A stretch of 62,121 nucleotides of DNA, counting the filler, from Rhabdomonas costata (lineage: Eukaryota), in the NCBI GenBank assembly GCA_019059605.1. It is 30 parts of 30 records of this genome, joined end to end, with 100 filler letters (N's around TTAATTAATTAA, not from the genome) between each part and the next. Parts side by side here need not be neighbours in the genome. Positions count along the whole stretch, not along the records: positions 14,527 to 16,497 come from JAHMHO010006816.1; 29 more parts are not named here. One strand, written 5' to 3'. The position numbers and the translations under genes are program-made. The notes under the pieces were generated by a model, which did no database searches, was not told the origin of the DNA, and saw only the letters and a list, made by a program, of their open reading frames with translations. Positions 8,382 through 45,939 of the stretch are shown piece after piece (position 1 is the stretch's first letter; every line of letters begins with the position of its first letter).

Positions 8382-9626
8382 GTTGTTGTGGATGGCTCCA
8401 AGAAGGTCATCCTGGTGCACTACCCCCTGCGCTTCATCCACAAGCTTCGCAGGATGCACAAGACTCTGGTGGCAGAGATGGAGAAGAAGTTCTCTGGTCG
8501 GCATATCATCTTCGTGGCGAAGCGGGACATCATCCGGAAGCCGAAAAGGAGCAGCCAGAAGATTCCCAGGTGGCTGTGATTGGAGGGTGGTCGTACCCTT
8601 ATCACTTCCCTTCACTTTGGCATAATTGGAAGGAAGGCTGCTGTCTCCTTCCTCTTAAGAAGTCCTGGTTTCCTTCTCTGTTCTCCCTCTCCTCCTTGTG
8701 TTTCTTCTCCGTGATTCTAATTCCTCAAAAATATAGGTGATATCCGGTGGGCGAATCGAAAGTAATGTTGTAGTGGTGGTTTTGGATCCCCGTCGTTTTA
8801 CTTGTTTATGGATGAAGTTCACCTTCTGAAGCCGTGAATGTCACCGCCTCGCACAGTCGTAAGTGCTTGACCGATCTGCATCACAATACCGATTGAACCT
8901 AAATTCCTTTTCACGACTAAGATTTGCCATGCTGCAGACCATGCACAAGTTTACATAGCCGTTCTGCGGATGCTCAGCTCCAGCGCAATGTGCTTTGCCT
9001 GTTTTTGTGTGTGCAGGACACGAACGGTGACCAAGGTGAACGAGCGCACCCTGGAGGACATTTGCTTCCCTCTGGACATCGTGGGCCGGCGGTGGAAGCA
9101 CAAAGTGGGGGGCCACAAGGTCTTCAAGGTCTTCTTCGACGCTCGCGAGAAGGATAGGGCGGAGCCTCGCCTGGAGGCTTTTGCCGCGGTGTACAAGAGG
9201 CTGACTCACTTCGCCGTGTCCTTTGGGTTTATGACGAAGTACGCCGCCGCGCCTCACACCAACCGTTCCCAATTCTCGCCGCCAAAGGATCTCTTCGCTT
9301 CTTTGCACATGCATGAATCTTATCCATTACGTCCCGATTTCAATAAATGGGAATACTAAGGATTGCACTGCTTTTTCCCTGGCACAGCGTCAGTCCGTCC
9401 AATGAGATTATGGGGAAGATGTCATTTTTCGGGAGTTGTGCAGGTTTCGGTGCATCAGGACAGAGTCCTTTCTGACGGGCTTTTGGTTGCTTAACGCTTT
9501 TTTGTACTTTGTGCTGGGTTTTCGTGGACGTCGAGCGACTGATATGGTCAGCCAGGTCAGCCATCAGCAAGTGTTTCATTTGCTTCGCCTTCTTCACTCA
9601 GCCCTTTGCTGCAGCAGTTCCTGTGA
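8382..9626 (+). CDS. RPS7: 40S ribosomal protein S7 (eS7), last three exons
   Basis: Exons 8382-8569, 9017-9238 and 9602-9626 (two phase-2 GT-AG introns) give VVVDGSKKVILVHYPLRFIHKLRRMHKTLVAEMEKKFSGRHIIFVAKRDI...KIPRTRTVTKVNERTLEDICFPLDIVGRR...VYKRLTHFAVSFGFMTNPLLQQFL*. The eS7 motifs EKKFSG.H..F.A.R, LED..FP..IVG.R and VYK.LT are present. Confidence 0.95.
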
Positions 9627-14526: not shown

Positions 14527-16480
14527 TGGGGGTGTGGTGAGCCGCTTCGCGTCAATCTCCTCCACCTAACACAGAGCAGAATCGGCTCACTACTCACTAG
14601 CATGAAAAGAAAGTTGCACAGGTACGATGCTTTGGGTATACCAAAGCAAAGCAAGCCCGAAAACCAGAGAATAAGAAAAAAGCACTGGTATCTTTGTCAG
14701 ACTGCGTCACCAACAACATTCCAAGGCAGCTGTCCTCGAGGAAGGAGTGAAGGGAAGGAGATAACTTCAGTGAAACCCGACTCCATTCGAGCCCTCCTCG
14801 AAACAACGCTAAATGGAAGCCAAAGACGGGAAAGAGGGAAAGAACGCAGAAAGAGAATAGATGGACATAGGGGCATAGGTGCGAGCCCTCTCAGTCAGAC
14901 TTCCATCTGTCCTTCACATCCACAAAAAAATCCACTCGTATCCGAGTTCGTTTAGACAGCTGCCCTATACCGTGTAGCTGAAGGGAAAGCCCGCGTTGAG
15001 CATCTCGATCAGCTGTGCGGGGTGGATGAGGGACCAGTCCGTCGTCCACCGGTTCCACTCCCGCGCTGCGCCCGCCGTTGTGGCCTCGGAGTCTCCGACG
15101 TACGCGAAATCCGTGCTGAGAACGTGCAGCTGCAAGTGCTTCAGGTCAGGGACGACCTGTGCCCGCGTAGGCTACATTTGCTGCTGTAGCGCCCATGCAG
15201 ATTCACGAAACACATCCCTGAACTCTCCGGCTCACACACTCTCATGTCTGTGTCCGAGAGTCTGGGCCACACTTCCCAAGCAGGTAGCGCATGGTTTGGG
15301 CAGCCTCGCCGAAATACTCAGGACACCCAACCTCCGCGTTCGTACGCCCGGTGCAAAATGGGTTCTTTCTTTGAAAAGACTGTGAAAAGACTGCTCGGAG
15401 ACGGCACATCTTCCTATTCTCTACCAGGGGCCAGACATGTTGGTGGTTTTTTTGACCCTCACAACAAACCCTGTCTGTAAAACATGAACGATGCCAAGCA
15501 GGAGGGTCAGCACACGAAGTACTCCTGGACTCTCTTCTGTTGGATCAAGTACGAAGATTGTGCCAAAAGGTCAGGTTCCTCAACCCAAACACCAAACAAA
15601 AACACCTGACCTGTCACAGTCCATCGCGAGATCATAGCGACTCAGTGCTAGCTAAGCAGATCCGTCCGAAGGTACCCACAGGAGGACACTTGAGTCGAGT
15701 TGAGTTCCGGTATGGTTGGAGTCAAGCATATAACTTTAGGGGCACACCACGCCCTTGCACACCGCCAAACAAAAGGTGCGACAATGTGAAGAAAAAAAGT
15801 CCGAAGACCTCAAAGCCAACGTGGAAGCTTACGGGCTTGGTGCCAAAGACCCGTTCCAGGAGCCTGATCTCGGAGTCTCCGCCCCAACGTCCGCGGATCC
15901 TCCCCGCGGTCCCAGAGACCTGAGTCCACTTCACTGACCGCTTGCACTTCTTGCATTCGTACATCCACCCGTTCTGTTCCATCCAGTCCAGGGCGGAGTT
16001 GGGCCACTCCTGCTGCTCCGCGCACACCGTGCACCTTTGAGCGTGCCAACAAAAAATTCGCCGCAATTCGCGGTGGGGTAACTGCGCGAATAGTCTGCGG
16101 GCAATCGTTCAGGTTCACGGAAGCATACATCGATGCAAACATCTCCGGAAATCACCTGCAAACAACTCCAAGTCAATTTTGGGATTGATTCGTGATTGTA
16201 ATGAAAAACATGCATGACAAGGCAAGCTAAAATGAATGTCTAACGCAATGGTGGGGTTGAAAGAAGGGAGCAGGTCCAAGAAATCGAGGGAAGCTATGAA
16301 CACAAACCTACCCGCTCGAGTCACGCAGGACAATCGTCTTTTCCAATCCCAAAGAGGCCGAAAAAAGAAAGATAAAAGTGTCCACGAACCGAAACACGGC
16401 CTTCGGGCTGAACCGGCCCTTCTGCTGGGCCAGGAAGTCTCGAGAGGCCGCCACCGAGGAAAATTTCTCCGCCACCACCC
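14527..16480 (-). CDS. Aprataxin-like HIT-domain protein with degenerate HIT triad and CxxC-x22-CxxC insertion (partial at both ends)
   Basis: Exons (about 16480)-16390, 16034-15809, 15156-14971 and 14565-14527 splice in frame: ...KAVFRCTVCAEQ...YECKKCKR...SFHVGFE/VVPDLKHLQLHVLSTDF...AREWNRWTTDWSLIHPAQLIEMLNAGFPFSYT/VEEIDAKRLTTP. This aligns with aprataxin [23 protein letters not shown]...HWNSFNT..F......IEM. Confidence 0.75.
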
Positions 16481-19400
16481 CCCAAACACACCAACACNNN
16501 NNNNNNNNNNNNNNNNNNNNNNNNNNNNNNNNNNNNNNNNNTTAATTAATTAANNNNNNNNNNNNNNNNNNNNNNNNNNNNNNNNNNNNNNNNNNNNGAT
16601 CGTTGGCGGCGGGTTCTGCGCGGCTTTCCGGCCTCGCGGGTCTGCACGGGCGGGCCGGCCACGGCCACAGCCACGCCACTGGGGTGCACGGCCTGGGAAT
16701 TTGCCGGGAGCTGCTGCGGTCACGACCAGGGGCTCGGCTGGCCAAAGAGTGGTAACCACTGAACCCGCAGTCTGACTCTGTCCCCTGTCCTGGAGATTTA
16801 ATGCAGTGCTGTGAATGCTCCAACCCGAATTTTTGAAGGGGGTGTTCTCTCTGCATCTGCCCCCGATCCCTTTCCTCGGCAGAGTACCATCAGTCCACAT
16901 CGCTCAGCTAGCAGCTGGCAGACCTCATCACCTTTTCACTGTTCAAAGCCGACACTTCCTGCTTTTTTCTAATCTCTGGGGTTGCGGCAATTACATAACG
17001 CTGGTTCTTTCGTTCGAGGTCGTAACCGACCTTGCACTGTGCCGTTTTGCCAACCGCACACTGCACACCCAAATGAAATGTTTCATCTCTTCGCTTTGCA
17101 CTTCAGGCCACCTCCGTGTAGTATCTGTTGCTTGCGTCGCCACAGATTGTGAGGCGACTGTGGTGACCCAATTTCCGCAATGGGCGCTGGTCCCTGGTCT
17201 TGTTTTTGTTGTACATATTGTGGTTGTCGGAGCTCCTTTTTGCTCGACGTTTGGCGCGCTCTTCCTGGCATTGCTCTGAGTGCGTATTTAACTGCTGTTT
17301 CACACGATTGGTATTTTGTTGTGATCCGTCGAGCCCGCTGACGCAAGGCGATGGTTGAAACTCGCAAAGCAATACTTGAGGTGTTTGGCAGTTCGTCAGC
17401 TTGTCAGTCAGCCATCCAGCCTGTAAGTCTGTGAGTCATCAATGGGGACCACTTACACAGTGTGCAAAATTGGTTTTGCATACATTGACACTAAAGTTCG
17501 CAGTGCCCACAATACTCACAGTGTTTGCAGTGAAGAGAGCACGAGAAAGTCTTTCATTCTCACTGTTCCCTAAAACTGAAAAGCAAAAAAAAAAGGAGAA
17601 AACGTGGGTTCTCGTGGGTGGGATAATCGCTGAAACTCTCCGCTGTGTGGGGCAAGAAGCGGCGCAAAAGAGATACTAAAGAGCCGCCAAGGGGCACCAC
17701 AACCGGCCGAGAGTGAAAAGTCAGAAAATTCTGACCCCACGCAGCGTTTCGGGAGGCCTGCTGTTTTTACAAAAGACCTCAAGCCTATTTTGGCTTAGCC
17801 CTCAACACTGTTGTAAACCCCAATGTACAAAAGAGATGTTTGCTGTTGCATTGAATCTTAAAGGTCTCCTTGCCCAGTTACTTTTCAAAGCGGCCTGCAC
17901 AGCATGCCCTCTGCGCCCACTTCGGGAACCCCTGCTCTGGTTTCGGGCCTGCCAATCTGCAGGCAACCCTGATTTCCTGCAACGGCCGCTTTTTCTTCTG
18001 CTTGCGGCCAGCAATTTCCGCTGGATGATGCAGCAGAGATACGGGCGGGAACACGGACGGACTGGCACGCGGGCCACAAAAAAAAACGAAATTCTTCGTC
18101 TTGGTCTCTGATTTCTTGCTTGCGTGGCTGCACACAGCATCGATATTGTTCTGCATCCGATCGCTTGATGCAGCTCACACCAGATTCTGCAGAGAAAAAA
18201 TTGTTAAGAGTTTGCGATTCTACAGATGCACGCAAACAGTAGGATGTTCTCATGCCATAATCACGGTTTTGCTGGTGACTGATAACTCATGGGAGAAGAA
18301 ATTTCAAATCCATCACAATAAGGCCGTGATTTGTTCCTGGGAAGACTAGAGCAATAGTGATATTCCTTGTGATGTGCGAAAGAAAAGGAAAAGCTAATCA
18401 AGAAGAAGAAACTGAAACAAGACTTTCTCCATGTATGCAAAAATGGGGACTTCGAGGCACTCATTGTTGAAGCGGCAGCAACACAGGCAGTCTTGTCGGC
18501 TGTCTGCGCAGCACCAGATGCTTTTCACAATCCCCACAAACACAGCTTTTCAGCTTGACTTCACAACCAACANNNNNNNNNNNNNNNNNNNNNNNNNNNN
18601 NNNNNNNNNNNNNNNNTTAATTAATTAANNNNNNNNNNNNNNNNNNNNNNNNNNNNNNNNNNNNNNNNNNNNGGGGTGTCTGGCTTCTCCCCCGATGCAG
18701 CGAGCTGAAGCAGGATTCTGGCGCGATACACAGTAATGCAATAAACTGAAGTGAAAGAGAAAAGAACATGCTTTGTGAGCCCTCGCGAACCTGCACGTCA
18801 TTCTCAGACACGGTACAGAAGCTCCGCATTGAAGCAATGCCCTGCTCCCCCAAAGGGATGAAAGATGAGGTGTGATCTCGTTTCGTTTTCCACGTTGTTG
18901 GCAGAATCGCCAAATTTGTCTGTGCGTACTAAACGGGAGATGTACGGCATCCAGCCCGCGGCAAAATTCGTCACGTTTTACCAAAGATTCGCTGGACAAC
19001 AGCAACGCCATTGAAAACGGAATTATGACAAACATCCTCATCGAACTTCGTTATTTTGAGGAAGCGGCCAATCGAAGTGTGGGGTTCAAGGAAGCTGTTT
19101 TACGGTTGCGAGACTTAACCAGCTCTTCAGCATCGGGGGAGAAGCCAGACACCCCGCAAAACTCCGCAAACCCACAGTGGTGCATTAGCGAGTGGGGATG
19201 AGCTAGGCTCCGAGTGCAGAACAAAGTTCGAAGCCTGCTAAATCCAGCAGGTGACAATCCACAAATGCAGATGCACACCGAAGAACAAACCAAGGCAAGC
19301 GCAGATACAAAGATGGCGAGAAGAGGAGGAAAAAGCGCCGGCGGTCAGCGGGAGAGCGAGATGCACAGCAGGTCTGAGGGGCCAAAGCTGAGCGCACCAC

Positions 19401-28773: not shown

Positions 28774-29859
28774 CTGGGGCCATACAACCCACAGGAACCA
28801 AAGTCGCACCGGAGCATCTTCCCCTAACTTAGAATATGCATCAGTCCTACGAGCACTGGAATTTGCAATATCAACTGTTTTCTTTCATCTTTTTGAGAGG
28901 AAATAATGTGACGGGTGAAGTCTCAGCAGCATACGAGTTGACACAACAAANNNNNNNNNNNNNNNNNNNNNNNNNNNNNNNNNNNNNNNNNNNNTTAATT
29001 AATTAANNNNNNNNNNNNNNNNNNNNNNNNNNNNNNNNNNNNNNNNNNNNCTATGTTGGTATGAAGGGCGAGAAGGCCGGCCTTGGCTGGTTTGATGAGC
29101 GCTCGGGGGTACCCACTACTCGGTGCTTGCATTACACTGCTTGCCTGTTGGCATAACTGCACCTTACCTACACGGTCACACCCTTTCACCCTTTCAGGAC
29201 GCTTCTTCCCTCTCACACAGAGGGGAAGTGATCTGCAACCCACCGCATTCGAGAACGAACCAGTGCATCGCTACATTGCTACCAATCAGTCAGGAGCCTC
29301 CTGAGAGAGAGGATCCATAGAGTGAGGTGGCCCAGAGGAGAGGACAAAGTGATTATTACTACTACTGGTTGTTTGGGTGGGCTTTGCCAGTGAAAGTTTT
29401 CTAAAGGGGTGGGTTGGGGTGGGGTGAGGACTGTCCCCCCACTACCGTAACAAATCTCATTCAAATAGGCTTTGAGAACCCACGAATGGAGGCCATCCTT
29501 TGGGAAGCGCGGGTGCTGATCTGCTGGAAGGTGGCCCTTGCGGTGGCTGGAGAGGTGGCCCTGTACAACCTCTCTCCCGCAACGACGCAACTGTGCCTCA
29601 CACCCACTGAGCACGGAACCATCTCTCATTGCTTGCGGTAAAGGAACAAATACATGATTTTTGCACGTGCATTGCACGCTAATTTATACGCTACGAAGCC
29701 TGGTCGGGTTTTTGGCTGGCAGGACTGCCGAACTCTCTACAGTGAGCATTCCATTGCCTTTGATTTGAACATCCCCCTTTGGGGGACTTATTTTTTCCAA
29801 AAAAAAAAATTCTGTACCCCATCTTTGGGGCATCCATCCCTTCCTTCGCTAACGGCCAG

Positions 29860-31024
29860 GTGGATCCCGCGGACCTGCTGGCAATCTTCATCTACACCTA
29901 TGAGTGCAGCATCTACAAGGACATGAACAAAGCGATGAGGGAGCGGGACGAGGTGGGCATCGCGAAGTGGCGGCCCTTCATTTTCCACCTCAGCAAGGCC
30001 CTGGAGCGCCTGCCCGGGGATGGGTCGGGGGTGACAGTGCCGATGAAGGTGTTCCGAGGAATCGGGATCCGCTTCGACCCCGCGCTGTTCGGGGTGGGCT
30101 GTATGCCGCACTGGCCAGCTTTCAGCAGCACCTCCTTGGGGTGGAGGGTGGCACACAACTTTCTGGAGCACGGCGAGGGCCTGGTGTTCGTGCTTCGAGT
30201 GCGGCGGGGCAAGTCCATCGCGGCCTTCTCGCGGTTCCCCAAGGAGGAGGAGGTGCATCTTTTTTGCCCCCTTCCACTGTGCAGGGATATTTCCATTTCT
30301 ATAGGGGGGGTGGGGCGTTAAACGCCGTTAAACAGCAAAGTCAAATTATTGCATGATCCCCCCACCTTCCGCTCCGGCCGCGCCTCGGGGGTGGCTTCTG
30401 CCTATAAGCTAATGTTGTCCCAATCGATTCACAATGTCCAAACGTTTAACGCCGTTAAACGTTTAACGCCACCCCAGAAAATACAAATGTCCCGTATTGT
30501 TGGCTGTTAGTATAGTAGTTTTCGCTTTGGATTAGGAAGTGGAAAGACTGTGGTTCCTTTGTGCGACGTACTGCAACACGCTTGAAAAGGGCGTAGCTTC
30601 TGAAGCAGAGAAGCTTCGAAAGGGTTGTGAGACATGAAAAACGTCTTTTTCGCCATCAAAGTTCATAGTCTTTGTTGTTGAATGTGCTGTTCTGCAATTC
30701 ATTGTTTTGCTTTTTTTTATGCCTTGCCCCTGTTTTTTTTGCCGCTCCTTCCCCATTTCCTGTGAGTCCACCGGAGATTTCCGCTCACCGATAAACCCCC
30801 ACACCCCGAAAAGGGCAGTTCTCTCGGCTTCAGTGTGCCAAGACCCTTGGCCTCGTTTAGCGTCATTCCCCCAAATCTCTCCTAGGTTCTGCTGCCCCCA
30901 AACACCTACTTCCGGGTGACCAACCTCGTTAAAGTGTACCCCACCACCATCCAAGGGTGGGACCGCTCCCTTGCCCTTCCGGTGTACCAGCTAACCACGG
31001 AGCAGGCCGCAGCGGCGAAGTCCG
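29860..31024 (+). CDS. R-S-E class (NAD:arginine-type) ADP-ribosyltransferase domain protein, partial
   Basis: Exons 29860-30252 and 30886-31024 give AIFIYTYE.SIYKDMNKAMR...LSKALERLP...KVFRG...WPAFSSTS...VFVL...GKSIAAFSRFPKEEE/VLLPPNTYFRV. All three ART motifs are present (R, STS, ExE). A possible upstream exon starts at 29469. Confidence 0.9.
30284..30493. mobile_element. Candidate MITE-like element with imperfect terminal inverted repeats, in the ART intron
   Basis: The left end GGGATATTTCCATTTCT..GGGGTGGGGCGTTAAACG is matched by the reverse complement of the right end, GGGACATTTGTATTTTCTGGGGTGGCGTTAAACG. Internal CGTTAAAC/GTTTAACG subrepeats. No clear target-site duplication. Confidence 0.45.
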
Positions 31025-43714: not shown

Positions 43715-44839
43715 TTATTTGGGAACTGGGGTGCAGCTGACCAACATACCCACAAGACGATGGAGGGCATTTGGTGTTCGACGAGTAGCCGCCGGGGAAA
43801 CGGGCTGTGCAATCGATTCAGAAGCATTCATGCAAAACGGCCTGGAAAGTTCACTGCGAATACTGTGAATACTGGTTCCCACCGGAAGCAGTTCGGCGGC
43901 TGGCTGGCGGTGCTCAGAATAAAATTCCGCAACAAGTGGGTTGAAACCGACAGTGGTGAAGTGGTGCGCCTCCGCCAGCGGGGATCTCTTTACCGGAGCG
44001 GAGAGGACTGGAACTTTGGGAGAATGTGCAGTGCTTTGTAGCGCACCAGAAGAAAGCGCTCTGCAGCTCAGTTTCCCAGCTTCCAAATGTTCCAAAGGTT
44101 CCATATGGACAGCAGACATGCTGCGGGAGAGTTGGACGACCGTGGGTCGGACCGTTCTCCAGGAACCATCGACCACAAGAAAATGCGTCGCTGCATCTCG
44201 AAGAGTGATGTTTGGCTGAAACTCTAACGACTGAGAAACAGGAGCAGCGCAGACGTCGCAGAAGCTCAGGGTGGAGGTATGCTTTAGGCATACGGAGTGT
44301 CCGCACCGAAGAGTCGTGGGAACAAATTCATCGGCATCAAAGGGGTGTGAGCAATGCACGCATTTAAAAGGCTCAATCCCCACAACGAGACTAACGTGAA
44401 GACTACTGCTGCTTGGACCGCAAGAACACGAACTCTGATGGGGCACTATTTCACTCCATTCGTTGACACTCTTTGGACAAGATCCTCTGAGATGCTCCTC
44501 CCAAGCCATCTCTCCCCCACGGCACGGGGGGGAAACGCGTCCGCAAACCTGAACGTGCACTTTCACGTTCGGATTCTGGACCAAGCATTGAGCGCCCGAA
44601 CAACCTTTCCTTTTCTTCTTGTTGGCGCGTTTAAACAAGTTTGCTGCCTCCTGAAGGGCAACACTCGGGAGACACTGCTCGGAGGAAGGGATCTCTGCGC
44701 GGCAGAAAGGACAGCAGCTAAGATGAGGAACATGCCTGAGACACACGGAGTGGCCGCACGGAAATGTGGTGGGACGGTGCTTCTTTGAGTTATATAGACT
44801 CAGGCAAAGGCAACACTCAAAGGGGCAAGAAGCGGACAT
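43715..44839 (-). CDS. Intronless 374-aa protein with two RING-finger domains (probable E3 ligase)
   Basis: ATG at 44839. CCLC-x15-CGHSVCLRH-x6-CPFC and CVHC-x15-CGHSVCLKH-x6-CDVC are each followed by a P[S/N]xxL.[E/D]AAxxF helix, with a Cys/His-rich linker between them. Confidence 0.85.
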   Translation of the reverse strand: MSASCPFECCLCLSLYNSKKHRPTTFPCGHSVCLRHVPHLSCCPFCRAEIPSSEQCLPSVALQEAANLFKRANKKKRKGCSGAQCLVQNPNVKVHVQVCGRVSPPCRGGEMAWEEHLRGSCPKSVNEWSEIVPHQSSCSCGPSSSSLHVSLVVGIEPFKCVHCSHPFDADEFVPTTLRCGHSVCLKHTSTLSFCDVCAAPVSQSLEFQPNITLRDAATHFLVVDGSWRTVRPTVVQLSRSMSAVHMEPLEHLEAGKLSCRALSSGALQSTAHSPKVPVLSAPVKRSPLAEAHHFTTVGFNPLVAEFYSEHRQPAAELLPVGTSIHSIRSELSRPFCMNASESIAQPVSPAATRRTPNALHRLVGMLVSCTPVPK

Positions 44840-45939
44840 CCTTTTTCGTCCTCGCTCTGAATCAAAAACCAAAAGCAGAGCACTGTATCGAGCACGAAAT
44901 CTAGCCGTTGTTCCGTGAACGTATTTTTAAGGAGATTTTCAGACCTTTTTTCAGACCATTTTCAGACCTTGCCCACAAACGGGAGTTTTAAATGGGGAAT
45001 ATTGTCTGATGCAACGAAGGGCCGAGATTCAGCTTGAGAAAGCGTAAACAGTTGCATCAGGAAATGACCTATGCTGCACAAAGCAGCACCAAACTGTTGC
45101 GAAGTCTAAGAAACGACAAGCTGAACTGAAAAATGCACTACAGAAGAAAAAAAAGAAGATCCTACTCGGCTGTCGTCTACTCCCAAGTCCTTCAGTAAAC
45201 TCGTTGTAGTCATAAATCACGCCATAAAAAATGCTGCCAGATCGCCATTTCTTAACTAGCGCCCAATTACAACCCTAAAATCGGCAGAAAAGGTCGCTTC
45301 CTTTTGTGACGCTGCACACCTTCGTTACTGACGCAGCCAACTCGGTTTTACCCACACATATTTGAATCCCTCCTTCAAAGTCAGTTAAAAGAACGAAAAC
45401 ATGAAGGCAGCCACGGCAACGGTCACTCGCTAAGAAAAGCGACCAGAAGATCCGCCCGTAAAATTTGTTTCTCCCACAAAGGTTCCCACAGAAAAGGAGA
45501 GGATGCAGTTAGCGAGAGCTCGCTTCCCAACCAAACCCNNNNNNNNNNNNNNNNNNNNNNNNNNNNNNNNNNNNNNNNNNNNTTAATTAATTAANNNNNN
45601 NNNNNNNNNNNNNNNNNNNNNNNNNNNNNNNNNNNNNNGGGTTTCTTGCGTGGGTGTTTGCACTAGGGGTTGGTTTTAGGTCTTTGGTTTGGTATTTAAT
45701 GTTCGGTATTTGGTTTCGGTTTAGACAGTGGTCTTTTAGTTATGCAGGCGCACGTGGTTTGAGGGCAATCCAAATGATTTGTGGTGTGGAACGCCATTTT
45801 TGCGACTGGGTAGCCTTTTGTTAGGCAGGGTCTCGGTCTTGGTCTCGGTTTCGCCACTATGGATTTGGCCTTCTGTCTATGGTCCCGTAGAGTAAGGTTC
45901 AAGACACTGAGCTGGATATGAGTGCAAGGATCTCTTGGT

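Follow-up and report, generated by a model that had tools for sequence, protein, structure and literature searches.

The chemistry of aprataxin hinges on one histidine. His260 is the catalytic nucleophile, which attacks the 5′-AMP phosphorus, and a charge relay to the scissile phosphate is made up of the main chain of Lys197 together with His201 and His262, as described in the available part of the source (PMC6043908). In Hint proteins, replacement of the nucleophilic histidine by asparagine raises the affinity for AMP 150-fold, giving a protein that binds AMPylated proteins, according to the accessible part of PMC12375108. Here we describe an aprataxin-like gene of Rhabdomonas costata (GenBank assembly GCA_019059605.1), in which the equivalent of His260 is a glutamine. 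The gene fragment lies on the minus strand of a 1971-base contig (JAHMHO010006816.1), which occupies positions 14527-16497 of the window, the 62,121-base stretch of DNA that was analysed; it comprises four exons and continues past both ends of the contig. The same substitution recurs in relatives from other lineages, and the protein may be a non-catalytic reader of nucleotide-tagged nucleic-acid ends.

The active site

Residues are given here in human numbering, obtained by adding 160 to the index in the aprataxin chain (chain I93 is residue 253), and the triad histidines are then 258, 260 and 262. On the minus strand of the contig, which carries every coding feature of the gene, the position of the nucleophile His260 is occupied by glutamine (codon CAG, 15130..15132), that of His251 by glutamate (codon GAG, 15809..15811, the last residue of a GFE motif), and that of Ser255, five residues before the glutamine, by aspartate (codon GAC, 15145..15147). 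The flanking CAC codons (15138-15136 and 15126-15124) supply the equivalents of His258 and His262. A sequence-only reading of this stretch had proposed that glutamine replaces the central histidine of the triad and glutamate the upstream one, and both assignments hold: the two residues align with His260 and His251 in HMMER comparisons made with the family profile and with the relative P0002, and exon C by itself pairs the glutamine with His260, in a match that is not significant when taken singly (E 0.37).

That reading had also called for the conservation of the glutamine to be checked in relatives. HLQLH is present in all six family sequences that cover the site (the window gene, P0001, P0002, P0007, P0008 and P0005), which represent four lineages. 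The glutamate of GFE is found in 5/5 sequences that extend to it, and the position of Ser255 is acidic throughout (6/6), being aspartate or glutamate, with glutamate in P0005. His262 is kept in all six, and His258 is likewise retained. Upstream, the equivalent of His201 is kept as LLHF in P0002 and P0005, where it aligns with the ...RYHW... of aprataxin, and after the HIT domain both proteins carry a C-x2-C...H...C pattern, which in P0002 aligns with the aprataxin zinc finger. Since glutamine stands at position 260 and His201 and His262 are kept, the residue that forms the covalent intermediate is gone and the charge relay is retained. Judged from these alignments, the site is remodelled and not merely broken, with glutamate at 251, aspartate or glutamate at 255, glutamine at 260 and the other histidines kept. 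A sequencing error as the source of the glutamine can be taken as excluded, given that the same residue occurs in independent sequences.

Relatives and homology to aprataxin

When exon C was run with HMMER against 1.84 billion representative proteins, six were returned at an expect value (E) of 0.001 or less, three of them true relatives: P0001, a 98-residue genomic open reading frame (ORF; 71% identity to exon C, E 2.3e-23), P0002, of 447 amino acids (72% identity, E 3e-14), and P0005, of 646 amino acids (65% identity over the matched stretch of exon C, E 6.5e-06). The remaining three (P0003, P0004 and P0006) were rejected as repeat proteins with no relation to the family, their matches being confined to short repeated segments. 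The sole named relative is P0005, a TRINITY transcript that carries the label Entosiphon sulcatum, a euglenid, in EukProt; P0002 and P0007, two almost identical alleles, come from contigs of ~1.6 kb and are entered by JGI as 'hypothetical proteins'. A profile search added P0008, P0009 and P0010, short genomic ORFs that are 96-98% identical to parts of P0002 and then run into non-homologous sequence. As these three are exons read into introns, and the 1637-nt contig of P0002 is intronless, P0002 represents a spliced mRNA, from the same organism as the three fragments, in which the gene itself contains introns.

The family is very sparsely represented: with P0002 as query, a search for proteins of similar length among 5.8 billion clusters yielded P0002 itself and P0005 only. 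A word-based homology search of exon C against longer proteins gave no match, and a metagenome scan with P0002 as query gave 75 pattern matches with no relative among them. A further metagenome scan, using a degenerate DNA pattern of the strand motif that allowed either histidine or glutamine, found three loci and no further family member; two of these (L002 and L003) are chance pattern matches with stops nearby, and were discarded. In the ESM Atlas, a kinetoplastid-rich cluster of 88 'hypothetical proteins' (~381 amino acids) has a low score of 0.76 against P0002, with DcpS_C in 20% of its members and Euglenozoa as its commonest phylum; these proteins might form an outlying branch of the family.

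Searched alone against the Protein Data Bank (PDB), exon C matches six human aprataxin sequences and nothing else at E≤10, over chain residues 93-138 and at 14.3 bits. This match is not significant by itself; the significance comes through the homologues. All significant PDB sequence matches of P0002 are aprataxin (7 distinct sequences, best 1.3e-9), with residues 198-298 aligned to aprataxin chain residues 77-176, a stretch that opens with the strand preceding the triad and extends across the zinc finger, and with a weak colinear match of the N-terminal half. The family profile matches human aprataxin at 1.3e-7. In Pfam, P0002 matches DcpS_C (PF11969), to which the HIT domain of aprataxin belongs, at 4.6e-10, with 40.4 bits against a gathering cut-off of 24, and HIT at 0.029. 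The WN..T and IEM motifs flanking the site, which had been read as intact, both align with human aprataxin, where the sequence is WNSFNTEYF...IEM.

Structural comparison of an AlphaFold2 (AF2) model of P0002 leads to the same branch. Foldseek places human aprataxin first (6e-5, template-modelling score 0.53), then Schizosaccharomyces pombe Hnt3, then Hint proteins, and Hint structures 5IPC and 8V1Y are among the structural matches of the model. VIA-align superposes the model on aprataxin with a Z of 10.9 over 137 residues, and when 48,161 representative chains were scanned without bias, aprataxin came first (Z 10.6) and DcpS second (8.8), these being the 2 chains at Z of at least 8. The nearest ESM Atlas clusters to P0002 are also aprataxin-like (0.92 and 0.90). 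The family has a HIT fold and belongs to the aprataxin branch, so that the earlier assignment to an aprataxin-like protein stands, as does its HIT fold on the model of P0002. Had only exon C been at hand, with its insignificant PDB match and no Pfam family, a chance resemblance in a protein unrelated to aprataxin might have been entertained; against the match of P0002 to aprataxin, its DcpS_C score above the cut-off and the first place of aprataxin among the scanned chains, this explanation has almost negligible probability and is effectively excluded.

Gene structure and maintenance

The four exons were placed by aligning homologues onto the contig. Exon A is partial (16390..16481, minus strand): it is alignable from ~16475, its frame is open to the contig edge at 16497, and it ends in phase 2 (CG|gttcgt). 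Its product, ...SRDFLAQQKGRFSPKAVF(R), aligns with ...CREFLLSNKRKFSPKTGCR of P0002 and ...CRDFLLANRRRFAPKARCR of P0005. Intron 1 (16035..16389, minus strand; 355 nt, GTTCGT...AAAG, GC content 0.46) has stops in all three frames, and its junction gives back the spacing seen in the homologues ahead of the CTVC motif. Exon B (15809..16034, minus strand) encodes a four-cysteine insert, with CTVC at 16033-16022 and CKKC at 15955-15944 on that strand and five conserved tryptophans, and then a strand ending in ...VSFHVGFE at a GTCTTC donor. Two other frames of 15810-16239 that had been taken for possible N-terminal HIT motifs were rejected, the homologue alignment showing this region to be intron 1 and out-of-frame exon B.

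Intron 2 (15157..15808, minus strand; 652 nt, GTCTTC...ACAG, GC 0.52) carries 6-7 stops per frame, and P0002 and P0008 run through GFEVVPDL unbroken where it interrupts the window gene. There is a stronger-looking donor, GTAAGC, at 15832, which is 24 nt upstream of the GFE junction. It was rejected, because the homologues keep eight residues (VTFHYGFE and VTFVVGFE) that match VSFHVGFE, and the GFE|VVPDL junction is therefore right. Exon C (14971..15156, minus strand, with an AG acceptor upstream) encodes 63 residues: the HIT strand VVPDLKHLQLHVLSTDF, a loop, EWNRWT, and a helix, ...LIEMLNAG...SYT. Intron 3 (14566..14970, minus strand; 405 nt, GTATAG...TTAG, GC 0.47) follows, and P0001, a genomic ORF, also diverges from the family straight after ...FT. 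Exon D (partial; 14527..14565, minus strand) encodes VEEIDAKRLTTPP, which aligns with ...AEIEAKRKGTPLACHNC of P0002, and the contig ends just before the expected C-terminal zinc finger.

Together the exons encode 181 residues without an internal stop. All three introns are GT-AG with stops in every frame, and the GC content is 0.63 in exons versus 0.46-0.52 in introns. Frame and splice sites, earlier described as intact, are upheld by these GT-AG introns and by the homologues at the GFE|VVPDL junction. The TAG at 14967-14965 after ...SYTV resembles the end of the gene but lies within intron 3, whose GTATAG donor at 14970 leads to the further exon at 14565-14527, and the gene is open at both contig ends. 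Intron positions vary by lineage, as P0008 breaks after AYVTDP, where the window gene has no intron; in its place the window gene and P0001 have a coding loop that is 8 residues longer.

Against P0002 the window protein shows 54% identity (94/173), and against P0005 49% (81/164), with 66 of 163 columns invariant among the three. Pairwise identity in the family is 43-54%, the four lineages with the same remodelled site stand at 43-71% identity, and two relatives are spliced transcripts: P0005, from the TRINITY assembly, and P0002, from its intronless contig. Between the alleles P0002 and P0007 there are 5 differences, every one of them in a disordered segment (1-45 or 307-362, together 101 of the 447 residues); were all positions equally likely to change, the chance of this would be ~6e-4.

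As far as can be judged from the protein comparison, the intact exons of the window, the transcripts of the two relatives and the allele differences, the gene appears to be maintained. This had been suggested from the outset, and it is borne out by HLQLH in every family sequence covering the site, by the intact exons and by the spliced transcripts. A histidine codon at the critical position, lack of expression or a fold other than HIT had been named as grounds for abandoning the idea, and the relatives display none of the three.

Alternatively, the copy in the window could be a pseudogene undergoing decay, or its glutamine could be an artefact of faulty assembly. The assembly is indeed fragmented into contigs of ~2 kb, the gene is partial, and a change from histidine to glutamine takes one third-position substitution. 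Yet the four exons are in frame, joined across GT-AG introns, free of internal stops and well above the introns in GC content, and the same glutamine occurs in five other sequences from independent sources, with identity to homologues of 49-71%. We consider a pseudogene or artefact very improbable and effectively excluded.

The insert and the C-terminal domain

The family also departs from aprataxin outside its active site. In P0002, ~100 residues separate the N-terminal HIT half (which ends at ~96) from the strand before the triad (from 198), compared with ~12 in aprataxin. The insert itself (~90 residues, in exon B of the window) has two invariant C-x2-C pairs ~20 residues apart and five invariant tryptophans, and 29 of 75 residues of exon B, including all 4 cysteines, are invariant in comparison with P0002, P0007 and P0005. 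Pfam assigns no family to the insert of exon B. Within the full P0002 model it forms a strand-strand-helix-strand-strand unit with a predicted local distance difference test (pLDDT) score of 63-84; folded alone, exon B gives a poor model (pLDDT 51.5). The four-cysteine insert is probably a zinc-binding module.

Beyond the predicted zinc finger, P0002 continues with a disordered linker and then a conserved three-helix domain (364-447) containing WWDYYY, with a pLDDT of ~90. This domain matches no Pfam family, and its structural matches are unspecific helical ones only, with Z of 7.5 or less.

Possible functions

As the family lacks the histidine that carries AMP covalently, we infer that classical two-step covalent deadenylation, which would not be possible without His260, is ruled out for its members. 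A role as a reader is favoured by the nucleophile-less Hint mutants, which bind AMP tightly. By analogy with these, we put at roughly 0.5 the probability that this is a maintained gene of the aprataxin branch whose product would recognise nucleotide-tagged nucleic-acid ends without acting on them as an enzyme. The sequence-only reading had gone in a like direction, proposing a pseudoenzyme that might serve as a sensor of nucleotides or of nucleic-acid ends, or as a scaffold; the loss of activity and such a role are both putative. A reader protein would dock a nucleic-acid end that is adenylated or otherwise capped, or a nucleotide, and hold it without cleaving. His201, His258 and His262, the remainder of the phosphate-binding set, are retained, as is the hydrophobic core. 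Contacts with the nucleic acid would be made through the insert and the zinc finger, leaving the C-terminal helices to recruit a partner.

Several points weigh against a reader of this kind. The strongest is the gain of two acidic residues (Glu 251 and Asp/Glu 255), which might repel phosphate. The window contig stops short of the His201 region, the N-terminal HIT half and the zinc finger, and its exons, searched singly and in alternative frames, match no HIT family of Pfam at E≤10. Pfam likewise finds no HIT family and no DcpS_C in P0005, and the zf-C2HE match of P0002 (0.0012), at 19.7 bits, lies under the cut-off of 30.1. The AF2 model of P0002 is of moderate confidence, with a mean pLDDT of 60.5, and conservation of the remodelled site rests on few sequences, four lineages being known.

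The acidic residues have a place in another explanation, by which the protein would still be an enzyme, with a rebuilt centre (Glu 251, Asp/Glu 255, Gln 260 and His201, His258 and His262) that holds a metal or activates a water molecule. It would then act directly on a nucleotide conjugate, by hydrolysis or transfer and with no covalent His-AMP formed, and its substrate might be a different one. Clusters of histidine, glutamate and aspartate are typical of metal sites; moreover, the three substitutions are the same or conservative across the family sequences, unlike random decay, and the other active-site histidines and the core are retained. On the other hand, we know of no HIT hydrolase that works without its central histidine, and the P0002 model is too uncertain to reveal a metal site. 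The central histidine is the nucleophile in both aprataxin and Hint, as the available parts of PMC6043908 and PMC12375108 describe. An enzyme with a rebuilt site is possible, though on the unlikely side.

A dominant-negative or regulatory partner would be a special case of the favoured reader. Here, a dead HIT-zinc-finger module would compete with a ligase or canonical aprataxin of the same cell, or pass substrates to it, shielding or labelling adenylated ends. In keeping with this proposal, the family appears to preserve a DNA-binding architecture of the aprataxin type, and its conserved C-terminal helical domain could bind a partner; aprataxin is a monomer, however, which makes poisoning through a heterodimer unlikely, and we regard a role of this kind as distinctly improbable. 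It is also conceivable, if doubtful, that the concerted change to glutamate, aspartate or glutamate, and glutamine, together with three retained histidines and a Trp-rich zinc module beside the pocket, amounts to a new function in poorly studied protists, whether as a non-covalent HIT enzyme or as a protein dedicated to reading RNA or DNA ends whose nucleotide cap is unusual or positively charged.

If the reader explanation is true, the family would offer a natural relative of aprataxin that lacks the nucleophile and keeps the pocket and the finger, and so an evolved trap for adenylated or capped nucleic-acid ends. It would use the same trick as the laboratory Hint H-to-N mutants, as these are presented in the accessible part of PMC12375108, and could show how cells mark, rather than repair, the products of abortive ligation. 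If the protein is active, it would provide a second catalytic route for the HIT fold. The family is very small and carries a new domain insertion, being known from four lineages among 1.84 billion representatives, from sparsely sampled eukaryotes.

No description of an aprataxin pseudoenzyme, or of a HIT domain without its catalytic histidine, was found in the literature searched, outside which lay subscription journals and bioRxiv supplements; in the same literature, HLQLH was found in unrelated uses only. The papers on aprataxin in Euglenozoa or trypanosomatids that came up there describe no such protein, judged by their titles and abstracts. A natural HIT protein without a working triad is nonetheless known, in the form of an avian W-linked Hint relative, and so triad loss has, in itself, a precedent. 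Its loss in the aprataxin branch, combined with a four-cysteine insert, appears to be undescribed.

Setting of the contig

The window consists of ~30 separate eukaryotic contigs of ~1.97-2.0 kb each, chained by N44-TTAATTAATTAA-N44 linkers, and features that are adjacent in it are therefore not genomic neighbours. Across the whole window, tblastn of exons B and C and blastn of the contig found no second copy of either exon or of the contig, and Rfam gave 0 matches. The plus-strand and other ORFs of contig 14527-16497 matched 0 Pfam families.

Other contigs of the window contain an ORF matching NAD:arginine ADP-ribosyltransferase (29764-30318, plus strand; Pfam ART, 6.8e-15) and an exon of ribosomal protein S7e (8871-9356, plus strand; 1.9e-22). 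The longest open frame of the window (43718-44926, minus strand; 403 amino acids) has a RING-like match under the Pfam cut-off (2.3e-05, 24.7 versus 27.9 bits).

Comparison with known systems

Human aprataxin (APTX; 4NDF, 4NDG and 6CVO, among others) is the closest described system. It shares the HIT fold and probably the zinc finger that comes C-terminal to it, and no other protein matches better in sequence (1.3e-9) or in structure (Z 10.6-10.9). Equivalents of its His201, His258, His262, Val263, Asp267 and WN..T are kept in the window family, whereas His260 has become glutamine, His251 glutamate and Ser255 aspartate or glutamate. Unlike the human enzyme, the family has the four-cysteine insert of ~90 residues and an extra C-terminal three-helix domain, and it has no FHA domain, by Pfam in P0002. 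In lacking FHA it resembles S. pombe Hnt3/Aptx (3SPD, 3SZQ and 4XBA), which has what is probably the same layout of HIT and zinc finger. Hnt3 is nevertheless a weaker match than the human enzyme (Z 6.0-7.3, Foldseek 1.1e-3), and the titles of its entries are those of DNA and AMP complexes of an active enzyme.

The scavenger decapping enzyme DcpS (1ST0, 1VLR and 5OSY) forms the second structural class (Z 8.8-8.9) and shares the Pfam domain DcpS_C with P0002. Only its HIT half aligns (chain residues ~170-316), with no match to the domain-swapped N-terminal domain and no PDB sequence match from P0002, and its triad is intact, whereas that of the window family is not. In the GalT branch of the HIT fold, the motif is HxHxQ, in which the second histidine is the nucleophile and glutamine stands third; the window pattern, H-x-Q-x-H, differs in having its glutamine in the middle, and no GalT chain is among the structural matches listed for the P0002 model.

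The engineered Hint proteins (human H112N and Escherichia coli hinT H101N) offer the nearest parallel at the triad itself, since the same position has been changed to an amide side chain. They bind AMP tightly without turnover and act as readers of AMPylated proteins, as reported in the available part of PMC12375108. They differ from the window family in being laboratory mutants of a small dimeric branch, and in lacking the zinc finger, the insert and the neighbouring acidic changes.

The remaining comparison is with a canonical aprataxin on a metagenome contig (L001; 940-1631, plus strand), recovered by the scan for the strand motif. Its strand is near-identical to that of the window gene (HLHLHVLSTDF), and it has GFH, WNSFNT and introns. 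As a positive control, it matches exon C by BLASTP at 1e-07, and its exons match DcpS_C (1.4e-9) and zf-C2HE (8.4e-16). As the exons of this canonical gene match both domains and those of the window gene match neither, the window family has diverged from aprataxin beyond the one codon at its catalytic centre.

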